From: Deltaproteobacteria bacterium
Lineage (GTDB): Bacteria; Desulfobacterota; DSM-4660; Desulfatiglandales; HGW-15
NCBI GenBank assembly: GCA_016931115.1
Contig: JAFGFM010000080.1
Span: forward strand, 7,577 to 71,576
DNA: 64,000 nucleotides
Direction of reading: 5' to 3'
A model generated the notes under the pieces. That model searched no databases and was not told where the DNA came from. It saw only the letters and a list, made by a program, of their open reading frames with translations. Positions 1-39,984 of the stretch are shown here, in pieces; the stretch's first letter is position 1; the number at the start of each line of letters is the position of its first letter. The position numbers and the translations under genes are program-made.

Positions 1-302
1 CAGATGAATTCGGGCAATATCTAACAAATGAGTATTTGCAGAAACTCTTTTATGAAGTCCGCGAAAAATTTAGTGCATTAAGTAGCGAGATTCTTGAGAA
101 AATCAATCAACAATATATAAGCCTCAAATATAAAGGGAGAACTGCTCTAACAATCTATGTAACAAGGAAAAGGATGGATTTGGAACATTACGATCAAGAG
201 AGCAATTGGGTAACTACGCAGATAACTGAAGAAACACAGTTTGATTGTGAAGAATTTATTAACAATCAGAGAAAGGTATTAGAGGATTGGGACGCAGAAT
301 AA
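1..302 (+). CDS. 5'-truncated CDS; C-terminal part resembles a DUF5655-like domain
   Basis: The frame is open back to the window edge (DEFGQYLTNEYLQKLF...). LFYEVREKFSALSSEILEK...YISLK is reminiscent of DUF5655; recognised by eye only. Confidence 0.45.
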   Translation, partial: DEFGQYLTNEYLQKLFYEVREKFSALSSEILEKINQQYISLKYKGRTALTIYVTRKRMDLEHYDQESNWVTTQITEETQFDCEEFINNQRKVLEDWDAE

Positions 303-520
303 AGCTAATAATCACAAAAACCAGTGGGTGCGAAAAGCCGGAGACCAAGACGCTCTTTAGAAATTAAATTGAAATAAAATTATAAAAGAGAGTCCAGCTC
401 TCACACTAGATTCAACCGATGCTGAGGATGCAGCGATAATTGGTACTAAAAAATTCGTAGATGTTCATCTTATATGATAATAGGAGTGACATCCAACAAT
501 GCAAATGAGAGACCATAGGT

Positions 521-591
521 TTATCAGACCGGTGCAGTTGGCTGAAATAATTTTATGACTTGAGATAGTAAAAATTGTGTAGGTCTGATAA
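521..591. repeat. ~70-bp hairpin repeat, copy A
   Basis: ttatcagacc (521-530) and ggtctgataa (582-591) are perfect inverted arms. Aligns ungapped to copy B at 45/66 nt. Preceded by catagg and followed by taaagggttt. Confidence 0.8.
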
Positions 592-633
592 TCATATAAA
601 GGGTTTATTATAAAAAACAAGATATCAGAAGCT

Positions 634-651
634 GTGAATCACTTGTTAAAC
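634..651 (+). mobile_element. attC-like right half (L' GTGAAT, 5 nt, R' GTTAAAC) at the start of the SIR2 cassette
   Basis: GTT core lies 29 nt before the SIR2 ATG. GTTA matches the inverse core (ATGTAAC) after SIR2. A possible matching left half (ATTCAAC, 410-416) lies ~220 bp upstream. Confidence 0.4.
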
Positions 652-673
652 AAAAGAAGAAAGGGAAGGCATA

Positions 674-1789
674 ATGTCTGATTCTTTCAATAATGACAAG
701 AACGTGTATTTACTTGGAGCAGGCTTTTCAAAAGAAATTGGTCTTCCTTTGCAAGATGATTTTTTACTGGTTGCAAAAGAAGTTTTTTTTAAGCGCACTG
801 GTCAGTATAAACATTTCCAGAGAGTGTTCGAATACCAAGATAAACTTACCAAAATGAAAAAATACCTAAACTATCCTCTCTTGAACCTTGAACACCTTTT
901 CAACCTCATCGAAATGGATTTCTTCTATTCCCAGGACTCGGCTATTTTACAAATCAAGAATGACTTTACTAGATTGATCTGTGATGTGCTTATAGACAGA
1001 ACACCCTGTCCCTTCTACCATGACGCTTCCGGTCATTTACGAATTGATGACTCCAAGTTTCAAACGTACCTTTCATTTATAAGTCTCTTCATAAAGGATG
1101 ATAAGCATAAAGTTGTCATGCATGACGACACCATCATTAGCTTTAATTACGACCTCGTGCTTGAAGGAGCGGCTAGTATCTACAACTGGAAACGAGACGA
1201 GAGGCGTCTAGACGGATATACAACAAAACCAAGAAATGATTCCTTTCTATTTAATACGACCTTTGGGAAAACAAACATCGTTGTGGAGGATGTTGGTCAG
1301 TATTTCAAGAAGAACATGTCAAATCCTTATTTCCCATCTCTTGAGCTATACTCGGAAAATGATGGCTCTTTGAAGCTTCTTAAACTCCACGGTTCCATCA
1401 ATTGGACACCTGCAGATGACCACACCAAGACATTTATCGTTCCTCCCACTTGGAATAAGTCCGACCCCGAAATTAGGGTGCTGTGGGATAAAGCGTATAA
1501 GGAGCTAATGACTGCAAAACGAATCATAGTTATTGGTTATTCCTTCCCTGAAACAGATATCTATGTAAAAAGCCTTTTGGGGCTGGCTCTTAATGAAAAC
1601 CAAATTCTCCAGAATATCTACTTCATCAACCCAGACCGCGATGTCGCAAAAAGGATGTGTCTTTCTTTACTCGACAGGTATTTTGAAAAGTACTGCGAAT
1701 ACAAAGAGTGGAAATTATCGGAATTTATAGATTCTAACGAAGGCAAGCAGTTCATAAAACACCACCTAAACAGAGAGGTAACGGCGTAA
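674..1789 (+). CDS. SIR2-like (SIR2_2 family) NAD+-dependent/NADase protein, stand-alone
   Basis: Motifs LLGAGFS, ISFNYD, LLKLHGSINW, IVPPTWNK, IIVIGYSFPETD. Purine-rich RBS (agggaagg). Confidence 0.9.
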   Translation: MSDSFNNDKNVYLLGAGFSKEIGLPLQDDFLLVAKEVFFKRTGQYKHFQRVFEYQDKLTKMKKYLNYPLLNLEHLFNLIEMDFFYSQDSAILQIKNDFTRLICDVLIDRTPCPFYHDASGHLRIDDSKFQTYLSFISLFIKDDKHKVVMHDDTIISFNYDLVLEGAASIYNWKRDERRLDGYTTKPRNDSFLFNTTFGKTNIVVEDVGQYFKKNMSNPYFPSLELYSENDGSLKLLKLHGSINWTPADDHTKTFIVPPTWNKSDPEIRVLWDKAYKELMTAKRIIVIGYSFPETDIYVKSLLGLALNENQILQNIYFINPDRDVAKRMCLSLLDRYFEKYCEYKEWKLSEFIDSNEGKQFIKHHLNREVTA

Positions 1790-1796
1790 AAGGTCG

Positions 1797-1853
1797 ATGT
1801 AACAAATTAATCTAGACAACTCGTTACACTGGCGACTGATTTTATCGTTGACA
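1797..1853 (+). mobile_element. integron attC-like recombination site (57 bp)
   Basis: R'' ATGTAAC, 5 nt, L'' AATCTAG, 20 nt, L' CTGATT, 5 nt, R' GTTGACA. L''/L' pair with one extra base. Begins 8 nt after the SIR2 stop and ends 10 nt before the next ATG. Confidence 0.75.
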
Positions 1854-1862
1854 AAAAATAAG

Positions 1863-2561
1863 ATGGAAATAGTGTTTAAGGCAAATACTGTTCAAGAGTA
1901 TAAGAAACTACTTTTAGATGCAGATTTTCGAGTACCTGAAAGGAGTGATGGACGAACGAAAGATGATGTAGAAAAATATGATTTATCTCATCTTTTACTT
2001 TGCCTTATGCAATGCGACCTACTCACATTTCCGCTTGAGCTCATTCATCGTAATCGTCCTGACTTCCTACTTGTTATGGGGAACAAAAGTATTGGAATTG
2101 AACATACTGAAGCAATTCATCAGAATATTGCTCATAAGGAATTTCTAATGGACCAAAATAACGGTCCAAGCACTTGGTTTATATCTCCTATTTCACCAAA
2201 TGATCTGTCGAAGAGTAAGAAAGAGTTAATGAAAGAAATTCAAGAGAACGCTCATGGTGATGGATGGTGGGGAGATTCTCCTGAAATTTCTTGGAAGGAA
2301 GTAATGCTTCATTTTATCCAGAAAAAGCTTAGTATCGCGCAAAAAGTTGGATATGAAAAATTTGATGAAAATTGGCTTCTCATTTACAATAACTGGAGTT
2401 TACCATCACTAAATATCTATGGGGTAATTCCAACATTTTTTCAGGAAGTCAAGAACTCTGGGGCTTTAAAAGAATTCGATCGGATTTTTATCACTAAAGA
2501 CAAAGAGTTTTGTGATATTTCGAGCACTGGAGTAACTGTACACAATGTTGACAATTTATAA
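1863..2561 (+). CDS. putative PD-(D/E)xK restriction-endonuclease-fold protein
   Basis: RPDFLLVMGNKSIGIEHTE motif. ATG 1863 is preferred over TTG 1848, which lies inside the attC R' box. Confidence 0.6.
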   Translation: MEIVFKANTVQEYKKLLLDADFRVPERSDGRTKDDVEKYDLSHLLLCLMQCDLLTFPLELIHRNRPDFLLVMGNKSIGIEHTEAIHQNIAHKEFLMDQNNGPSTWFISPISPNDLSKSKKELMKEIQENAHGDGWWGDSPEISWKEVMLHFIQKKLSIAQKVGYEKFDENWLLIYNNWSLPSLNIYGVIPTFFQEVKNSGALKEFDRIFITKDKEFCDISSTGVTVHNVDNL

Positions 2562-2562
2562 A

Positions 2563-2581
2563 TACCAACAATCGCATTAAC
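2563..2581 (+). mobile_element. attC-like left half (R'' TACCAAC, 5 nt, L'' CATTAAC), right half missing
   Basis: Starts 2 nt after the stop codon. CAAC is complementary to the GTTG at the start of this cassette (1847). Followed by unrelated purine-rich sequence. Confidence 0.5.
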
Positions 2582-2715
2582 TCAAAAGGGGAAAGATAGG
2601 GTCTGGGAAAGATCAGTCCTTGACAACGGACATTACTGAAAAAGACAATCATCGTTCAAGTAGATATTACAAGACAAAAGTAGTAACTTTAGATAATGTA
2701 CAGAAGTGAGGTGAA

Positions 2716-2783
2716 TGTCAGATCTACACAGTTGATATGCCTAAGTATATGGCTTACGAAGGTGTCATTGTGTATGTCTAACA
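2716..2783. repeat. ~70-bp hairpin repeat, copy C
   Basis: tgtcagatctacacagttga...gtcattgtgtatgtctaaca. Same core as copies A, B and D with a 1-nt deletion. Confidence 0.8.
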
Positions 2784-2864
2784 CTAAACGTTTCTGAACA
2801 TTTTACTGACCCTGAATTTTATGTACAACAATATAAACAGATATTCAAAAGAGGAGAGACAATA

Positions 2865-3380
2865 ATGAATAATTTCACAAACCGATTTAAGACTTTGCTT
2901 GCCCTGATTTGTTTTACATTATTTTGCAGCTCTATTGCTCAGGCAGAAGAAATGACTCTCGAAACCTTGATCGATCGTCAGAAGGTGCAGGATTTAATTA
3001 CCCGCTATTACTTCAACTTCGGTGGGACGCCTGAAAGTTTTGCAAACTTTTATGTGGATAATGGTGAGCTGATTCTGATCGGTCAGCATTATAAGGGTAG
3101 AGAGGCTATTGCCAAAGCTTATAACTTTCCTGAGGGTGAAGCACCCAAGAATTTTTCATTCAATAGTCTTATCAGTAATTTACTCATTACGGTGAAAGGT
3201 GATACCGCCAGGGCGAAACTGGTGTGGACTGAGAATGTGATGCAAAAAGAAAGGGGTGAGATACAGCTGCCCGCTCAGGGTCGGGAGTACTCCACTTTCG
3301 TTAAAATAAAAGGTAAGTGGATGTATCTTACTCGCGAAATCAAAGGAGGAACAGAGCCGCCAGAGGGTTGGGAGAAGTAG
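2865..3380 (+). CDS. secreted SnoaL-like/NTF2-fold protein
   Basis: Signal peptide (...SSIAQA). LIDRQKVQDLITRYY and GREAI motifs. RBS gaggag. Confidence 0.8.
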   Translation: MNNFTNRFKTLLALICFTLFCSSIAQAEEMTLETLIDRQKVQDLITRYYFNFGGTPESFANFYVDNGELILIGQHYKGREAIAKAYNFPEGEAPKNFSFNSLISNLLITVKGDTARAKLVWTENVMQKERGEIQLPAQGREYSTFVKIKGKWMYLTREIKGGTEPPEGWEK

Positions 3381-3423
3381 AGTAACAAATAAGACACTCA
3401 CCTTCTTTACTGCAACGTTATGT
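3380..3423 (+). mobile_element. collapsed attC-like remnant
   Basis: GAGTAAC at the stop codon and GTTATGT 44 bp later. Too short for an intact attC, and the L boxes do not pair well. Confidence 0.3.
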
Positions 3424-3449
3424 TTCTGGTAAAAGCTTGAAAGAGCATA

Positions 3450-3522
3450 GGTATCAGGCCTACACAGTTGGCTGGCTTAAGCTTATGGTTTGGGAAGGTG
3501 TCAATTATGTAGTACTGATACC
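3450..3522. repeat. ~70-bp hairpin repeat, copy B
   Basis: ggtatcaggcctacacagttg...caattatgtagtactgatacc. Long imperfect palindrome. Confidence 0.85.
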
Positions 3523-3559
3523 AAAGGATTTACTCTTTTTACTTTTTTGCGAGGATGCT

Positions 3560-5764
3560 ATGAGCTTGAAATGCACGATTGGAATGCACCAGTGGACTGG
3601 TTGCAGATGCTCGAAATGCGGAAAGACTCGGGATGAGGCCCACGACTGGTTATCGGATTGCGAGAAGTGCAGTGTGTGCGGCAAAATAAGGGCAAGCGCA
3701 CATGACTGGAACGGCTGCAAGTGTCAGAAGTGCGGAAAGATAAGAGACGAAGGACATGATTGGGACAAAGATTGTGAGACCTGCGGGCGATGTAACCTTA
3801 AAAGATCGAACAAGCACAATTGGATCGATCTTGAATGTTCTATCTGTGGTCAAATATGGCCCAGCAGGCGAGGGCACATTCTGGCTCTTTTAAAATTATG
3901 TCATCAAGATAAACAGGCTGCAGTTGAAAAATGTCTGGTTGCCATATCCGGCAGAACCTATATCCCTGAAAAAACTGCTTTGCATCTCCTGGGAATACTT
4001 AAAGATGACAAGGCGATTGAACCACTTGCAAAATATCTCGCTGACCTGAAGCCCTTTTCGGAATGTGCAATCAAATCATTATCTATGTTTGGCGTCGATG
4101 CGGTTGATTCTTTATTACGTAATATGCCCACCGCAGGTTCTATTGGCGGTCGCCGCAGGCTTTTCGAAGCATTATGCAAAGTTAGTTCCGTTTCCATTGA
4201 CCGTCTTGCAGGGGAGTTGACCAATAGACAATATTGTCAAATTGTCGCAAAAGCTTTGGGCCAATCAGGCGATCGGCGGGCAATCAATCCGTTGTTTGAA
4301 GCCCTTAAAACAAGCTACTTTTCTCGCTCCGAAGAGCGAGAAGGCGCCATTTCGGCTCTTTTACAACTGGAAGCTTACGAAGAATTGCTTTTACTTTTGC
4401 ATGATGCAAATGGCAGCTTGGATACTATGGTGGCATGGGCACTGGGAAACCTGGGCGACAAGCGCGCATTAGAGCCTTTACTTGAGGCATTGGAAAAGAC
4501 AAAACCTGGCAGTTATGAACGTCGTACAGTAATTAAAGCGTTGGGTAATATTCGAGACCCGCGTGCGACAGAACCCTTGTTAAAAATACTTAATGAAACA
4601 GATATGTCTATCCGTCGAGATACTATCATAGCTCTTTCAAAAAGCGCGGATGGACGAGCAGTCCCGGCACTGCGTGATACGATAGAAAATTTATCAGTGG
4701 ACGAACTGGAAGCCCATAAATACGCTGAAATGGGATTAGTGCGCCTGGGAAATCCTGATTTCATGAAATCATTAATTAGTATGCTATCTGTTAATTCAAG
4801 CAATTACGACATTTTACTGGAAGTATTTAGATACAATAAAGATGTTCTTGTAAACGCCGTCGTGGCTATGCTTGAACTCTCGAAGGAAGAAACTTCCTAT
4901 AGTGGCTATGAAAAAACAGCGGCTACTTATAACCGTCTCACCTGCCTGGAGTTGCTGGATAGAATAAAAGAGCCAGGGAGTGTTAATCCTCTGTTAATCG
5001 TGCTTATGGATGATCCCCATTATGAAGTCAGGGCCATGGCCGCGAAAACCTTGGGTAGGATCAGGGATAAGCGAGCGATTCTCTCTCTGATAAGGGCAAT
5101 TCAAGACACAGACTCCATTGTTCGGAAAGAGGCAGCCATTGCACTTGGAGAGATTGCGGATGCTCAGGCAGTTGAACCACTAGTCCATACACTCAAAGAT
5201 TCCCAAGAAGAAGTCAGCGCAGCAGCAGTCGAAGCTCTCGGTAATATCGGAGACATTCGAGCAATGGAACCTTTAACCAGTTTTATACAAGACTCATCGG
5301 GTTTACCGAACATGAAAAAAGCTTTGTATTGTGCCGCTGTGTCACTTGCAAAACTTGGTGCAGCAAAGCAATTAATATTATGGCTGGAAACTCCGAATGA
5401 AAATCTCTGCGAATACGCCATTATAGGTTTGACAAGCTTAGAAGATGCAGAAGCAGTACAGCCGTTAACGCGCTATTTGGAGGATAGTTCAAAACTTTCC
5501 AGGAACAGAGCGTTAGCTGCTACAGCCTTGGGAAATAAAGGTTTGACAGCCGTTGATCCTTTGGGTGAGGCGCTTAAAAATAAATCGAGAGAAATAAGAG
5601 AATCTGCAATAGTGGCACTCGGGAATCTTGGATGGTCTGCAATCGAACCTTTTTTATTAAACACCGAAGACAGAGATTTAGATGATCGTTGCGGTTGGGA
5701 AGCTTGGGAGAAGCTGTCTGAAGATTTAGAGATTTACCTCATGCAAGGGCATAGGCAGGCCTAA
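3560..5764 (+). CDS. HEAT/PBS-lyase repeat protein with N-terminal Cys/His-rich (HxW..CxxCG) repeats
   Basis: Repeated HDW..C.KCGK.RD units, then many ALG.IGD.RA.EPL repeats. ATG 3560 has a gagga RBS. The extension from 3437 is a translation of repeat B. Confidence 0.85.
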   Translation: MSLKCTIGMHQWTGCRCSKCGKTRDEAHDWLSDCEKCSVCGKIRASAHDWNGCKCQKCGKIRDEGHDWDKDCETCGRCNLKRSNKHNWIDLECSICGQIWPSRRGHILALLKLCHQDKQAAVEKCLVAISGRTYIPEKTALHLLGILKDDKAIEPLAKYLADLKPFSECAIKSLSMFGVDAVDSLLRNMPTAGSIGGRRRLFEALCKVSSVSIDRLAGELTNRQYCQIVAKALGQSGDRRAINPLFEALKTSYFSRSEEREGAISALLQLEAYEELLLLLHDANGSLDTMVAWALGNLGDKRALEPLLEALEKTKPGSYERRTVIKALGNIRDPRATEPLLKILNETDMSIRRDTIIALSKSADGRAVPALRDTIENLSVDELEAHKYAEMGLVRLGNPDFMKSLISMLSVNSSNYDILLEVFRYNKDVLVNAVVAMLELSKEETSYSGYEKTAATYNRLTCLELLDRIKEPGSVNPLLIVLMDDPHYEVRAMAAKTLGRIRDKRAILSLIRAIQDTDSIVRKEAAIALGEIADAQAVEPLVHTLKDSQEEVSAAAVEALGNIGDIRAMEPLTSFIQDSSGLPNMKKALYCAAVSLAKLGAAKQLILWLETPNENLCEYAIIGLTSLEDAEAVQPLTRYLEDSSKLSRNRALAATALGNKGLTAVDPLGEALKNKSREIRESAIVALGNLGWSAIEPFLLNTEDRDLDDRCGWEAWEKLSEDLEIYLMQGHRQA

Positions 5765-5807
5765 ACAGTTGACAGGCCTGAGCTTATGGCTTAAGAAGGT
5801 ATCAATT
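5749..5807. repeat. ~70-bp hairpin repeat, copy D (right arm truncated)
   Basis: gcataggcaggcctaaacagttgacaggcctgagcttatggcttaagaaggtatcaatt. 43/52 identical to copy B. Contains the TAA stop of the HEAT gene. Confidence 0.8.
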
Positions 5808-5879
5808 CTAAAGGGTGGTTTCTTTTTGGATTGTGATGAAATGTTGTTAATCAACCTATAACAGGTAAGGAGATATAAA

Positions 5880-6296
5880 ATGTTGTATCATGACTTAAAA
5901 GAAGACTTGAAAGAATCTATGAAAGCAAAAAATATGGATAGAGTAAATGCCATACGGGTTATTATGGGTGAATTTCCAAGACTTAATAAATTAGCCGGTG
6001 AACTTCCTACAGACGATGAAGTATTGAAGATATTGAAAGGTCTTAAGAAGAATGAAGAATTGGTACTGGAAAAATTAAATAAAACTGAATCAGTATATCT
6101 TAATGTTATAGAAGGTTATCTGCCTAAAATGATGTCCAAAGAAGAAATTAAGGCCTTCATTCTTTCATCAGGCATTAATTTAAAGGGTGGTGAAAATATA
6201 GGGCAAATAACAGGAAAGCTAATGAAAGATTTAAAAGGAAAAGCTGAAGGCAGCCTGGTAAAAGAGGTATTAACTGAAATGATGAAAGAGGGTTAA
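5880..6296 (+). CDS. GatB/YqeY domain protein
   Basis: DLKESMKAKNMDRVNAIR...YLPKMMSKEEI. RBS aaggag. Confidence 0.85.
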   Translation: MLYHDLKEDLKESMKAKNMDRVNAIRVIMGEFPRLNKLAGELPTDDEVLKILKGLKKNEELVLEKLNKTESVYLNVIEGYLPKMMSKEEIKAFILSSGINLKGGENIGQITGKLMKDLKGKAEGSLVKEVLTEMMKEG

Positions 6297-8218
6297 TGCT
6301 GTTTCACCCATTTTTCCACCACCTTGTATGGATAGGCCTCCAGCCTGCTAAACCCTGGCAGGTTTTTGGCTTTATATTCAACCAGTCTGGGAGAAGAAAT
6401 GCCGCATAAAAAACGTGTTATCAGGGTTACCATATCAAATGAATTTGTTTGCCCCACCGCATCAATAAGGGGTTTAACCATGGCATGAAAATCCGGATGG
6501 TTTAGTGGTGGCAGCTCTGATGACTCCATTCTGATAGCTTTTTTCTCCAGGCAGACCGAACACCTCCCGCAGCCATTATCCAGCCTTTCACCAAAATAGG
6601 CTGAAAGATTTTTAGCCAGACACTGGTCAGACTCAAAAAGGTCAATCATGGCATGCAGGCGCGCCACATCCTTTTGCTCCTTTTCTATAAACAGCGCTGC
6701 AATCTCCTTTGCAATCGAGTCTAGATCAAATCTGGAATTGATTATCTCAAAAACCTCCACACCAGATGATGGTCTGAGGACAATCCACCCTTTCTCATGA
6801 AAATAATCCAGGGCTGTTAAAACCCGCTGCCTGTCAAAGCCTGACTCGGCCACAATATTATCTATATCCACCTTTGCCCATGTCTTGGCGAGCCTGGAAT
6901 TATCCAGTATGGTTTTAACAAACTGTTTCCTTTCACCATTAAAATTTGCCTGAATCTGTTCGCCGGGCACCAGATACTGGAATGAATAATTTTCAAAATA
7001 GATATATTTGGGGGAAATAATATTCGCCATCTCAAGATAAACCAGAAGGGTTTTTAAGGGCAGCAGCCTGATATCTGTCCTCATGCTCAGGGAATGTTCC
7101 CTAACCTCAAACAGCTTTTCCTTGGATTGTGATATTTCCTCCAGCACCTTGCGGATATTCGCAAGGCCTGGCGTGTCACCATAGGCAAAATTCTCAAGTA
7201 CAGGTATGTGGTTTTTATTTCCCAGCAGGCAGCAGAGAGAAGGCATTCCATCCCTGCCTGCCCTGCCTATCTCCTGGCTGTAGCTCTCTATAGATTTTGG
7301 CAGGTCATAGTGGATAACCTTTCTGATATCCTCTTTATCTATTCCCATGCCAAAGGCGATGGTTGCTACAACGATACCTGTTTCTCCTCTCATAAAACGG
7401 GTTTGAACAGCATCCCGCTCCGCATTTTCCATACCGGCATGATAGGCCTCTGCCTTAAGTCCATGCTCTTTAAGCATAAGGGCTATGCGATCCGCTGTCT
7501 TCTGAAGTGTAACATAGACGATTGCGGGGCCATCAGGCTTTTCTGCAAGTATATCGCAAAGCACGGCCTCTTTATTTTCTTCCGCCACAGGACGTATGCG
7601 TAAAAATAGATTTTTCCTGTAAAAACCTGTTTGCGCCACATTTTCCAGGTTGATTGCAAACTTTTCACACATGTCGAGGATAACCTTTGGCGTTGCCGTG
7701 GCTGTGAGTAACAGGACCTTATTAATACCATATTCTTTCTGATATATGGGGATCTTCAGGTAATCGGGTCTGAAATTGTGGCCCCATTCAGATATACAGT
7801 GGGCCTCATCAACAACAAGCAGGGATATATTCATCTGTTTGAGCTGGGTTCTGAACCTTTCATTCTTAAATCGTTCAACAGCAACCATCAGTATCTTGAG
7901 TTGACCTGATCGGGCTGCTGCAATTGTATTGCGATAATCAGCATCGCTCATGCCTGAATCAAGTTTTGCCGCGGCAATATCCTTTGATTTTAAAAAATCT
8001 ATCTGGTCTTTCATCAGGGAGAGAAGCGGTGAGACTACCAGGGTCATGCCCTGTTCAATAACAGCAGGTAGCTGATAACAAAGAGATTTTCCTGCGCCTG
8101 TAGGGAAGATTGATGCAGCAGACTTACCTGCTATGATGGCCTCTATAACCTCTCTCTGACCGGGTTTAAATTTATCAAAACCAAACACCCTCTTTAATGT
8201 ATCATCAATTACAGACAT
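6293..8218 (-). CDS. RecQ-family ATP-dependent DNA helicase
   Basis: FKPGQREVI, PTGAGKSLCYQ, VDEAHCISEWGHNFRPDY, QEIGRAGRDG, C-terminal CGRCSVC. ATG 8218 is preferred; the ORF extends to 8287. Confidence 0.93.
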   Translation of the reverse strand: MSVIDDTLKRVFGFDKFKPGQREVIEAIIAGKSAASIFPTGAGKSLCYQLPAVIEQGMTLVVSPLLSLMKDQIDFLKSKDIAAAKLDSGMSDADYRNTIAAARSGQLKILMVAVERFKNERFRTQLKQMNISLLVVDEAHCISEWGHNFRPDYLKIPIYQKEYGINKVLLLTATATPKVILDMCEKFAINLENVAQTGFYRKNLFLRIRPVAEENKEAVLCDILAEKPDGPAIVYVTLQKTADRIALMLKEHGLKAEAYHAGMENAERDAVQTRFMRGETGIVVATIAFGMGIDKEDIRKVIHYDLPKSIESYSQEIGRAGRDGMPSLCCLLGNKNHIPVLENFAYGDTPGLANIRKVLEEISQSKEKLFEVREHSLSMRTDIRLLPLKTLLVYLEMANIISPKYIYFENYSFQYLVPGEQIQANFNGERKQFVKTILDNSRLAKTWAKVDIDNIVAESGFDRQRVLTALDYFHEKGWIVLRPSSGVEVFEIINSRFDLDSIAKEIAALFIEKEQKDVARLHAMIDLFESDQCLAKNLSAYFGERLDNGCGRCSVCLEKKAIRMESSELPPLNHPDFHAMVKPLIDAVGQTNSFDMVTLITRFLCGISSPRLVEYKAKNLPGFSRLEAYPYKVVEKWVKQH

Positions 8219-17734: not shown

Positions 17735-17839
17735 TCTCTTATATTAATGCTCTGCGTTAAGAATTATACAAATCCATATGGCAGGAAACAGATATCTTGC
17801 TCCATTGGTATCCTTTTTTTATAAATTCCGGCACCTGTT

Positions 17840-18088: not shown

Positions 18089-18964
18089 GGGTCACCTCCT
18101 TTTATTGGGATTCGATGGAATGCGATCCTTACCTGACCGACGGACACCTGTCAGATTCCGGATATCAGGGACAAAGATATCTCTGCCCGGACCTATGACC
18201 TGAAAGGCGTTCAGCTTAATGATGAATTGGCTTAAAATAAATTTACTAGAGATAAAGATTCATGACTGGGAAAAAGAGAAGTGATTGACATGAATCCTAA
18301 TCAGCCAAAGCCCGACGGAGGTTGATCGTTTAAATCCATAAAAATCTCCATTTTTAAGTGAATAATAAGCCTATATTGGCGTTTTCCGGTCCAATATAAT
18401 ATTAAACGCCTGGAATGTCAAGATTTAGCCAAAAACAGACTAATACCGGTATTTTTCTAATATTTCAGGAAATTAACACAGGACTCTTCTCTTTTAATAA
18501 CGCTCTGTGTTAAGAATTTTCAAAATGCATATAGCAGGAAACAGATATCGTAATACTCAATTGGCAAGCTATTCTTATCCCGCCCCAACCCGGCAGCAAA
18601 ACTTTACCATCCTGACCCCAAAACATATTGACATACCCTATACTATTTCCCATAATGCCCAGGTCTCACCAGATTTGTTTTCATCAAGTTTTAATAAATT
18701 TTTGCGGGTATTTATACATGTTGATGTTTATCAGAAACTATTCAATAACTTGTCATAATTAACAGTAACAAGAGTAAAGCAGGGCTGGAAAATATATGAA
18801 AGATTCTGATTTTAGCAAGAGCTACCTTGATAAGCTCAAAGAATTTTTTGCCTTTTTGAAAAACCTTTGGGGTATTCTTGCGAGTGTTTCGGTTTTCTTT
18901 CCTCTTTCCAACATTTTACTTGATTCATAACCTGCCATAACCATAACGGCAGACATACATTAAA

Positions 18965-30091: not shown

Positions 30092-30109
30092 TAAATTTAA
30101 AAAAACTGA

Positions 30110-30191
30110 GGGCAGACACATGGGCCTGCCCCTACATTGTTAATCATGAAATTTACCATTTAATTGTAGTGGTGGACCTATGTGTCCGCCC
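30110..30191. repeat. GTAG-type REP doublet
   Basis: gggcagacacatgggcctgcccctaca ... tgtagtggtggacctatgtgtccgccc, in inverted orientation. Confidence 0.8.
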
Positions 30192-39515: not shown

Positions 39516-39557
39516 TAAATCACAATAGCTAACCACGAAGTTCACGGAGTTTTTTTA

Positions 39558-39665
39558 GAAATCGAAATCGAAATCGTAATCGAAATCGAAATCGAAATCG
39601 TAATCGAAATCGAAATCGAAATCGTAATCGAAATCGAAATCGAAATCAAAATCGAAATCAAAATC
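39558..39665. repeat. hexamer tandem array (GAAATC)18 with 24-bp higher-order period
   Basis: GTAATC variant at units 4, 8 and 12. AAAATC at units 16 and 18. Confidence 0.95.
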
Positions 39666-39773
39666 GATCCCGATGGCGATTTATTATTGAACAAGCGGAG
39701 TACAGTTTACGATCTTCGGTCTGGGGCTGCGGCATATAGAATACGGTTTTCGGTTTGCGGTTTATGTAAAAGT

Positions 39774-39855
39774 TGCAGGGGCAACCCCCTGTGGTTGCCC
39801 AGGGACGATTATCATGCATAACCATATGCGGGCAGGCACAGAGGCCTGCCCCTAC
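39774..39855. repeat. GTAG-type REP doublet
   Basis: tgcaggggcaaccccctgtggttgccc ... gggcaggcacagaggcctgcccctaca. Confidence 0.8.
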
Positions 39856-39984
39856 AGACATACCAATCATTTTTCAATTCACATTTCGTCTTTTGCTATG
39901 ATTCAGCATTTATATCGCTGTTTGAAAACAATTTCAGACCAAGTATTTTTTCTGCTAAATACGAATTTATTGAGTATGTCTATT

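Follow-up and report, generated by a model that had tools for sequence, protein, structure and literature searches.

In the 64-kb window, which is the whole stretch of DNA analyzed, four copies of a hairpin repeat (A–D) are interspersed with four genes upstream of a YqeY-like gene, which 10 of the 11 genomes of the genus possess (Table 1). The SIR2-like and HEAT-repeat genes are accessory, since within the family each was found in the source genome alone (1 of 61 genomes). Homologues of the SIR2-like gene with 81% amino acid identity occur in metagenome contigs as integron cassettes with an 85-nt attC, and blastn homology with one such cassette-borne locus, L202, extends 16 nt beyond the SIR2 stop codon into the R'' box of L202. 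The 33-nt candidate behind this gene is a possible attC remnant judging by its sequence, lies outside the hairpin family, and is too short for a working attC. The SnoaL-like gene was kept at the locus in six genus genomes (tblastn, 75%–96% identity in G002, G003, G004, G006, and G007) and is not a variable cassette. The stretch 3384-5836, including the HEAT-repeat gene, was wholly absent in G003, G004, and G007. The original prediction had asked whether the neighboring genes vary between strains; the gene content between the conserved flanks did differ among species of the genus, and the locus is a genuine variable hotspot. Of the gene assignments made there, those of SIR2, SnoaL, and HEAT agreed with Pfam, while the 232-aa ORF had no match.

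Table 1. Hairpin copies, genes, and other features of the locus
Feature	Positions	Strand	Description	Support
Copy A	515-597	+	TIR doublet, probable gene-less TIRtron miniature; left arm most diverged	R1, 77.9 bits
SIR2-like gene	674-1789	+	Between copies A and B	Pfam SIR2_2
Possible attC remnant	1797-1829	+	ATGTAAC, 19 nt, GTTACAC; between SIR2-like gene and next ORF	
232-aa ORF	1863-2561	+	Same inter-hairpin module as SIR2	Pfam: no match
Copy B	2709-2790	+	TIR doublet	R1, 77.6 bits
SnoaL-like gene	2865-3380	+		Pfam SnoaL_4
Copy C	3445-3527	+	TIR doublet, best preserved	R1, 87.5 bits
HEAT-repeat gene	3560-5764	+	Between copies C and D	Pfam HEAT_2, HEAT_PBS
Copy D	5746-5828	+	TIR doublet without right outer arm (~15 nt deleted)	R1, 73.3 bits; alignment
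YqeY-like gene	5880-6296	+	Conserved right flank of variable locus	Pfam YqeY

Hairpin copies in the window and the source genome

Six copies from the source genome (5.18 Mb) served to build a covariance model, R1. The search with it, as proposed originally, yielded six full copies there, namely, the four in the window, C148:78491-78571, and C182:20017-20098, as well as some half or decayed sites. In the window all four copies were on the plus strand (73–88 bits), and a scan of its full length revealed no other copy. Thus, four hairpins of the same orientation at module boundaries, with none in the other 58 kb, were correctly recognized by eye, and the repeat is indeed a discrete, hairpin-capable DNA element with a defined orientation. 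The window copies are imperfect palindromes of ~80 bp. Copies of the source genome are only 50%–70% alike, and they occupy intergenic positions, mostly just 3' of co-oriented genes. The presence of four of the six within 5.3 kb in a single orientation is far above chance (~1e-8 by our own estimate).

Folding as single-stranded DNA gave one long stem for copies A (–8.7 kcal/mol, z –2.9) and C (z –2.4), as predicted from the by-eye consensus. In copy B the stem was poor (z –0.4, not exceeding that of shuffled sequences), and the loss of the right outer arm prevents copy D from forming it. The left-flank motif CATAGG exists in three copies, which are A, C, and D rather than A, B, and D as first listed; the same three carry the right-flank motif AAAGGRTTT, whose partial conservation had been noted. 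The stop codon of the HEAT ORF (TAA, 5762-5764) lies in the left arm of copy D, where a C-to-A change creates it, in agreement with the prediction that this copy supplies the stop.

Hairpin arms and Y1 transposase units

The hairpin arm is a terminal inverted repeat (TIR) of ~25 nt, GGTGTCAGGCCTACACAGTTGACA, which in relatives flanks units of 1.03–1.05 kb. A full unit comprises the left TIR, ~60 nt, the gene for a 315–335-aa Y1 (HUH) transposase, and the right TIR, overlapping the transposase stop codon. Enzymes and units of this kind, a sister class of RAYT/REPIN, have been named TIRYT and TIRtron, respectively (Di Nocera et al. 2013, PMC3733652). A TIR pattern search of the 61 family genomes revealed inverted pairs ~1 kb apart, while the reversed pattern, used as a control, gave 0–1 matches per genome. 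Three pairs (G019:C101:69-1102, G033:C40:19954-21002, and G034:C171:467-1483) each enclosed one ORF of 315–335 aa; Pfam identified Y1_Tnp in all three and Bac_DnaA_C in two, and the scores against the NCBIfam model NF047646 (REP-associated tyrosine transposase) were 79–86.5 bits at a cut-off of 80. The C-terminus of the transposase is a helix-turn-helix (HTH) resembling DnaA domain IV, to which it also had a PDB match. Compared with the TIRs on either side of the transposase gene in G019, identity was 22/23 and 19/24 for the left and right arms of copy C, 19/20 and 9/13 for those of copy D, 18/20 for the left arm of copy B, and 14/16 for the right arm of copy A.

The association of TIR and transposase holds across many phyla. 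Among GTDB genomes, at least 120 stretches had the exact TIR pattern, with Thermodesulfobacteriota, Synergistales, Nitrospirota, Chloroflexota, CPR, and Methanomethylovorans among the taxa; of 80 stretches fetched, 14 had the TIR no more than 100 nt from a TIRYT-like gene, and 15 were exact doublets. The TIRs of relatives start with GGGGTCAG, GGGGTCAA, or GGTGTCAG, and the window copies with AGGTATCAG, two positions off GGGGWSAS. Copies of the genus share a conserved center, ..AAGYTTATGGNTTG... We can only infer that the doublets originated by internal deletion, because this center was not found in the autonomous units inspected. An intact cognate transposase was absent from the source assembly, which has only a paralogue of 38% identity whose TIRs are different (C11), together with relics of the gene on C78, C82, and C189. 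Transposases are multi-copy in some relatives, with 22–36 Y1_Tnp matches in G010 and G005.

Since the arms are TIRs of Y1 transposase units, the hairpins are gene-less TIR doublets, similar to MITEs or REPINs. Each is very probably a non-autonomous miniature consisting of the two TIRs of a small Y1-transposase unit from which the intervening gene is missing. An unrecognized site for cassette capture, as originally proposed, is therefore not what the arms represent: they are TIRs of TIRYT/TIRtron units, a described class (PMC3733652), intact in relatives. Of the two recombinases suggested, a divergent IntI or an HUH enzyme, it is an HUH-type enzyme that is tied to the repeat, while the integrase is located elsewhere on another contig.

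Turnover of the copies and alternative readings

Copy number is low per genome, and species of the genus have some orthologous copies in common. R1 detected 1–10 copies in 15 of the 61 relatives, adjoining genes for 2-oxoacid:ferredoxin oxidoreductase, FrhB, M24 peptidase, TPP enzyme, flavodoxin, radical SAM protein, and CoA transferase; these are ordinary metabolic surroundings and do not support a cassette-capture site. In kind, the repeats correspond to the ordinary REP or MITE, dispersed and without a link to variable genes, that the original prediction had set against its own reading; in number they do not, as hundreds of copies had been envisaged and there are few per genome. In G003 and G004 an orthologue of copy B lies upstream of the SnoaL gene, and in G006 and G007 deletion remnants of it persist, the stumps TTTATCAGGCCTACACAAT and TTTGTCAGG; copy C has an orthologue downstream of SnoaL in G006. 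Orthologous copies were ~67%–69% identical versus 85%–95% for the flanking genes, and comparison of sister species showed decay by deletion and substitution. All resolvable presence/absence differences were deletions or parts of larger indels; no clean insertion with defined ends or a target duplication, and no transposition of the doublet family, was observed in the genomes compared.

The Y1 transposase would have acted in trans to spread the doublets, probably via hairpins of single-stranded DNA at the replication fork, by analogy with IS200/IS605 and RAYT/REP, which would account for the co-orientation of the doublets with genes. The four window copies are presumably now inert relics. Their clustering could be explained if the interval from the S9 peptidase gene to YqeY is a tolerated spot with fast turnover of acquired DNA. 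Long palindromes may favor illegitimate recombination there, so that some indel breakpoints would coincide with the edges of hairpins. The clustering, the single orientation, and the edge breakpoints are not predicted by simple random insertion of MITEs.

It is improbable that the doublets, while being mobile-element relics, also serve as junctions that make neighboring genes more likely to be gained and lost, so that the boundaries are causal and not coincidental. Such sites could work through TIRYT acting on two separated arms (composite mobilization) or through palindrome-stimulated illegitimate recombination. Two gene-content breakpoints are indeed no more than 10 nt away from a hairpin edge, the left one of copy B (source genome versus G003) and the right one of copy C (versus G006); the genome-specific HEAT segment has a doublet near either end, G003 has an insert of its own that ends in a doublet, and at a second locus, that of copy E (C148), species likewise differ in the DNA downstream of the doublet. 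However, other indel ends are 30–60 nt from hairpins or hairpin-free (the right end of ORF273 in G006), doublet-flanked SIR2 or HEAT genes were not found elsewhere, and the five metagenome SIR2 loci had no doublets. Moreover, these observations come from two loci, and MITEs accumulate in variable intergenic DNA anyway. A hairpin role in gene exchange is a low-probability residual possibility.

Selection for a host function, as terminators, mRNA stabilizers, or protein-binding sites, is very unlikely. Most copies are directly 3' of co-oriented genes, 88% of cells pair, more than in shuffled and slid controls, and side effects of this kind are known for REPs and MITEs (PMC3733652). On the other hand, a T-tract terminator signature was absent at every copy and Rfam gave no match to the hairpin; the poor folding of copy B, the lost arm of copy D, the low identity of orthologous copies, and the deletion of a copy in two species also argue against it, and co-variation of the arms is equally expected for TIRs recognized by a transposase.

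The reading of the hairpins as non-canonical attC-like sites, and of the island as a cassette array served by the integron integrase of the genome or another recombinase, is largely refuted and now deserves almost no credence. The integrase does exist (C146:5684-6619, TIGR02249, 369.6 bits at a cut-off of 265), the genes between hairpins are co-oriented, SIR2 and HEAT are strain-specific, and the variable gene content and the cassette nature of the SIR2 homologue fit such an array. But the attC signature already suspected to be missing is absent: a search of every copy ±20 nt on both strands revealed no RYYYAAC...GTTRRRY pair, and a heuristic finder that recovered the control attC in L202 detected nothing intergenic in the island. 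These same arms flank Y1 transposase genes and adjoin housekeeping genes in many phyla, their sequence is conserved as that of attC sites is not, the integrase is preceded by a dnaA-to-purM housekeeping stretch on its separate contig, and SnoaL, a supposed cassette, is conserved at the locus across the genus. Targeting of cassette junctions by the hairpins is not supported because their in-silico excision restores no attC.

Comparison with known systems

Like integron attC sites, gene-less TIR doublets are oriented imperfect palindromes (57–141 nt in attC) between co-oriented genes and can overlap a stop codon. Unlike them, they have no R''/R' boxes, their arms are sequence-conserved across phyla and flank a transposase gene, and they neighbor core metabolic genes and lack an adjoining intI or attI. 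Bacterial MITEs (Correia/NEMIS, RUP, ERIC) are similarly non-coding, 70–300 bp long with TIRs of 15–30 bp, and inserted beside coding sequences, where they may overlap gene ends and supply stop codons. Classical MITEs derive from IS elements with DDE transposases and have target-site duplications, whereas the parent enzyme here belongs to the HUH Y1 transposases and duplications were not observed. With the REPINs of RAYTs (Bertels and Rainey 2011, PMC3116915) the doublets share two inverted repeats of ~25 nt and a spacer forming a long hairpin, inverted repeats also flanking a Y1 transposase gene, extragenic location, vertical inheritance, and slow decay, and the transposases of relatives score close to the cut-off of the NCBIfam RAYT model. 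Unlike REPINs, there are 6 copies and not tens to hundreds, and the arm is not a classical GTAG-headed short palindrome; unlike RAYTs, the transposases have an additional HTH domain, and in some relatives there are multiple copies of them.

The TIRtrons are described as having a GGGGWSAS motif at the TIR start and HTH/DnaA_C extensions of the enzyme (PMC3733652; PMC6006769), and subclass 2.1 of the TnpA_REP-like proteins belongs with them (Quentin et al. 2018, PMC6006769). Their solo and dimeric TIR repeats, "organized as REPs in dimers or clusters," are the counterpart of the REP/REPIN of RAYTs (PMC3733652). Neither the present TIR family nor its genus-specific doublet (~80 bp, with a conserved TATG-containing center) is among the TIRtron examples in the papers cited here, and the window copies differ in being degenerate and having no cognate gene in the source genome. 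In common with TIRtrons are the RAYT-like Y1/HUH transposase with a DnaA_C/HTH extension, the gene between long TIRs with the right TIR overlapping its 3' end, the GGGGWSAS-type TIR start, and the occurrence of moderately abundant TIRs without the gene, single, dimeric, or clustered.

Hairpin copies in the window and in the genome

The covariance model R1 was trained on six copies from this genome (G000), for which nhmmer was also used in the genome scan. The four co-oriented repeats of the original prediction (copies A-D) were recovered near the positions stated there, with 73-88 bits each, and no fifth copy was found across the 64-kb window, also as predicted. Only two further full copies are present in the whole 5.18-Mb assembly, in addition to several half or decayed sites. 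According to Pfam, the genes among copies A-D encode SIR2_2, SnoaL_4, and HEAT-repeat proteins, which upholds the predicted modules, and a 232-aa product without a Pfam match. Copy D indeed supplies the stop codon of the HEAT ORF, the TAA lying within its left arm. Folding of single-stranded DNA produced the expected single long stem for copies A and C (z -2.9 and -2.4), but not for copy B, whose fold was no better than those of shuffled sequences, or for copy D, which has lost its right outer arm. Pair-count statistics showed that the arms are paired, and do not separate a selected hairpin from co-varying terminal inverted repeats (TIRs); the alignment used contains both strands of some palindromic matches. 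No Rfam match was obtained over window positions 1-7000 at E<=1. Intrinsic terminators were rejected as an explanation: no copy shows the signature of a GC-rich stem with a downstream T tract, and the seven terminator-like sites detected within 300-6400 all lie elsewhere.

Features of the window, of the window genome (G000), and of its relatives
Feature	Location	Description
Copy A	window 515-597	~80-bp imperfect palindrome, co-oriented with B-D
Copy B	window 2709-2790	~80-bp imperfect palindrome, co-oriented with A, C, D
Copy C	window 3445-3527	~80-bp imperfect palindrome, co-oriented with A, B, D
Copy D	window 5746-5828	~80-bp imperfect palindrome, co-oriented with A-C
Full copies beyond the window	G000 C148:78491; C182:20017	
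TIR-gene-TIR unit	G019 C101:69-1102	
TIR-gene-TIR unit	G033 C40:19954-21002	
TIR-gene-TIR unit	G034 C171:467-1483	
Transposase paralogue	G000 C11:95-1160	intact, 326 aa
Integron integrase	G000 C146:5186-6625	long N-terminal extension
Integrase and IS91-family pair	G000 C168:21646-23187	degraded gene and pseudogene
Conserved non-coding module	G000 C119:6857-7073	~200 bp, ~500 bp before the window start
CGGGAATCCAGTTGTTTT(T)G repeat	G000 C218:3839-3900	
CGGGAATCCAGTTGTTTT(T)G repeat	G000 C183:14337-14400	
CGGGAATCCAGTTGTTTT(T)G repeat	G000 C148:78600-78720	
GTAG-tagged REPs	window 30107-30136; 39827-39856	GTAGGGGCAGGCC-N-GTGCCTGCCC, minus strand
Tandem hexamer array	window 39534-39695	GAAATC/GTAATC, ~25 units
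Direct repeat	window 17735-17796; 18488-18549	62 nt, 85% identical, spacing 753 bp
Putative R''-19 nt-R' remnant	window 1797-1829	33 nt, ATGTAAC-19 nt-GTTACAC
S9 peptidase-YqeY interval, G007		HicB-SnoaL-YqeY only
S9 peptidase-YqeY interval, G003		additional two-ORF insert with a doublet at its end
S9 peptidase-YqeY interval, G006		273-aa ORF after the copy C orthologue
S9 peptidase-YqeY interval, G000		[NucS-like, A, SIR2, ORF232] before B; [C, HEAT, D] after SnoaL

Among other repeats, the window contains a tandem hexamer array and a long direct repeat. A further small repeat, CGGGAATCCAGTTGTTTT(T)G, frequently accompanied by CATTCCC..., adjoins TIR arms at several sites, also in the relative G006, and may represent a further MITE-like family.

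TIR-transposase units and decay of the copies

The covariance-model search of this genome and its relatives, proposed with the original prediction, revealed six full copies here, and 15 of the 61 family genomes (this one counted, with 60 relatives) have 1-10 copies. The copies found share a common layout, with two inverted arms of ~25 nt each, GGTGTCAGGCCTACACA(N)TTGACA ... TGTCAA(N)TGTGTAGGCCTGACACC, with a centre of 10-70 nt. A search of the 61 genomes with a single-arm pattern, for which the reversed-pattern control gave 0-1 matches per genome, also detected inverted arm pairs about 1 kb apart. Three of these pairs, in G019, G033, and G034, enclose one ORF each (315-335 aa) with the stop codon inside the right arm, forming intact TIR-gene-TIR units of 1017-1049 bp. 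Their products contain the Pfam domain Y1_Tnp of IS200-like HUH transposases and score 79-86.5 bits against the NCBIfam model NF047646, "REP-associated tyrosine transposase" (cut-off 80). The HYH and RY(I/V)HxNP motifs are invariant across the transposase alignment, and Bac_DnaA_C was found by Pfam in two of the three proteins and in a paralogue on contig C11 of the window genome. A profile search of PDB matched the C-terminus to structures of DnaA domain IV, with TnpA_REP (4ER8) reaching only E 0.69; a single-sequence PDB search with the transposase gave no match.

The arms in the window are identical to the TIRs of the G019 unit at 22/23 (C left), 19/20 (D left), 18/20 (B left), and 14/16 (A right) positions. 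RAYT-like genes located between long TIRs have been described before, the enzyme being named TIRYT and the unit TIRtron, and TIRs also occur as "moderately abundant families," many of them "organized as REPs in dimers or clusters" (Di Nocera et al. 2013, PMC3733652). Judging from the shared arms, the window hairpins fit that description and are dimeric TIR repeats (doublets), gene-less miniatures of a TIRtron. Most TIRYTs were assigned to subclass 2.1, with Bac_DnaA_C/HTH C-terminal extensions (Quentin et al. 2018, PMC6006769). The TIRs of the relatives start with GGGGTCAG, GGGGTCAA, or GGTGTCAG, and the window copies with GGTATCAG or AATGTCAG; the starts of the window copies have one to two mismatches to GGGGWSAS, a start common to only "some" TIRs (PMC3733652). 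The exact arm pattern was found in at least 120 stretches (one genome per GTDB species) from Thermodesulfobacteriota, Synergistales, Nitrospirota, Chloroflexota, CPR bacteria, and one Methanomethylovorans MAG. Of the 80 GTDB stretches retrieved, 14 carried a TIRYT-like gene within 100 nt of an arm, and 15 were exact doublets.

The hairpin copies in this genome are old. Pairwise identity of the genus copies is 50-70%, and orthologous copies are ~67-69% identical, versus 85-95% for the flanking genes. Copy B has orthologues in G003 and G004; in G006 and G007, internal deletions have left only stumps of its left arm. Presence/absence differences at the locus are deletions of the doublet or larger indels, and no pair of empty and filled sites with exact element ends was found there. 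An intact cognate transposase was not found in the 240 contigs of this assembly, from which a copy could be missing, while gene fragments occur on contigs C78, C82, and C189. Copies A-D are most likely inert relics. The TIRYT paralogue on C11 is intact and 38% identical, with perfect TIRs (TTTATCAAGTCTGCYTTTGACTC) unlike the window arms. The classical REP/RAYT arrangement was rejected for this genome, since this RAYT-like gene is bordered by a different, related TIR. Direct CCCTTTA(TA)ATG repeats outside its TIRs may reflect either duplication of the target site or target preference, and the outer flank of the C11 unit is similar to CATATAAAGGGTTT, the sequence on the right-hand side of window copies A and F.

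Gene turnover and integron-related readings of the island

The locus bounded by the S9 peptidase and YqeY genes is genuinely variable. Its content differs among G003, G006, G007, and this genome (see the table), consistent with the neighbour variation sought by the original prediction. The island is AT-rich in its left part, and the SIR2 and HEAT genes were found only in this genome among the 61 of the family. The TIR doublets of TIRYT transposons could be recurrent junctions for gene gain and loss, so that accessory genes (SIR2-like, HEAT, and others) would turn over at chromosomal hotspots in hairpin-bounded modules, by an HUH-based process reminiscent of integrons. Two gene-content breakpoints located within 10 nt of hairpin edges point in this direction, as does a second locus (copy E on C148), where the DNA past the doublet also varies between species. 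However, other indels end 30-60 nt from hairpins or have no hairpin, and a doublet-gene-doublet unit was not found at a second site. SIR2 or HEAT modules between doublets were found nowhere else: both are unique in the family, and doublets are absent from the metagenome SIR2 loci. We consider such module exchange very unlikely; the hairpins may favour illegitimate recombination. The NucS-like gene is preceded by a conserved non-coding module (...CCTGTTTATACTTGATAATAGATATCTGAAGAGCTATCATCTCCC...), of which this genome has a single copy. Sequences with 77-78% identity to it precede unrelated genes in G004 (twice) and G007. The module may serve the variable locus as a shared promoter, leader, or regulatory RNA.

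The original prediction interpreted the hairpins as possible non-canonical, attC-like recombination sites of a cassette array, while suspecting that attC boxes were missing. Indeed, an ordered RYYYAAC (R'')/GTTRRRY (R') pair is absent from every copy and its 20-nt surroundings on either strand. A heuristic attC finder, which recovered the 85-nt attC of a control contig, detected nothing intergenic in the island. Sequence of the hairpin arms is conserved across phyla, whereas attC sites conserve structure rather than sequence and occur only in cassette arrays. Moreover, the arms flank Y1 transposase genes, copies outside the window are located beside ordinary and core metabolic genes, and SnoaL is kept at the same locus across the genus. 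No intI was found within 7.5 kb before the window start, the region in which the original prediction suggested looking for a recombinase gene. The integron integrase of this genome (TIGR02249, 369.6 bits, cut-off 265) is encoded on another contig, C146, behind genes for DnaA, an Mrp-like ATPase, a Ser/Thr kinase, a PP2C phosphatase, and PurM. Since the upstream side consists of housekeeping genes and the ORF extends past the contig end, a cassette array, if there is one, would be downstream and on a separate contig. The hairpins are no new recombination system. The other suggestion, an element targeting cassette junctions, was compared with IS1111-attC and group IIC-attC introns and found no support, since in silico excision with flanks trimmed by 0-12 or 0-18 nt restored an attC-like fold at none of nine copies. 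A link to the degraded tyrosine-integrase gene and IS91-family (HUH Y2) transposase pseudogene on C168 was also rejected; the 5'-truncated integrase there directly adjoins a right-arm TIR (CTGTTAATTGTGTAGGCTTGACAC), but this is a lone degraded copy with the arm simply adjacent.

Some genes of the island may nevertheless be former cassettes. Two metagenome contigs (LGVF01410440.1, LGVD01032528.1) carry homologues of the SIR2-like gene (81% amino acid identity) as genuine integron cassettes, with an 85-nt attC, GCGTAAC...GTTATGT (-21.5 kcal/mol). On the 3' side of the window gene (674-1829 region), only a putative 33-nt R''-R' remnant is left. Together, these sequences suggest that the SIR2-like gene could be a former cassette.

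Assignment of the hairpins to Y1-transposase element debris removes a tempting false lead, an attC-looking hairpin between co-oriented defence-like genes. Its value is modest. It documents a TIRYT/TIRtron family with a 21-nt end kept in lineages that range from Thermodesulfobacteriota to CPR bacteria and a methanogen. Masking of this TIR-doublet family is advisable when integrons and defence islands are annotated in Desulfobacterota-like genomes; the family would also provide well-defined substrates for TIRYT biochemistry (single- versus double-stranded DNA substrate, role of the DnaA-like domain).

Comparison with TIRtrons, REPINs, and MITEs

The repeat arms of the window are the same inverted repeats as those bordering a TIRYT gene in relatives, as in a TIRtron. 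The enzyme of the relatives resembles TIRYTs in being a RAYT-like Y1 HUH transposase with a DnaA-type HTH extension; extensions of that class are of the Bac_DnaA_C, HTH_23, or HTH_28 type. In contrast, no intact cognate transposase was found in the assembly of the window genome. The window element can be regarded as a functional analogue of a REPIN or MITE: gene-less doublets of this TIRtron family persist and decay at orthologous sites, REPIN-like. Besides the TIR doublets, this genome harbours a canonical REP family: the classical GTAG REP, two copies of which lie in the window, has 20 copies in the genome by strict regex. Similar to REPINs, the hairpin consists of two inverted repeats and a spacer, and the same repeats flank the RAYT-like gene. 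In contrast, GTAG/CTAC is located inside the arm of the window family (GTGTAGGCC) and does not head a self-complementary REP, the only self-complementary stem within one arm being TGTCA/TGACA. Copy number is also different, with six full copies here and 0-10 in relatives versus tens to hundreds per genome. Because it lacks both of these hallmarks of REPINs, the short palindrome headed by GTAG and the high copy number, the family was assigned to TIRtrons rather than to classical REP/RAYT systems.
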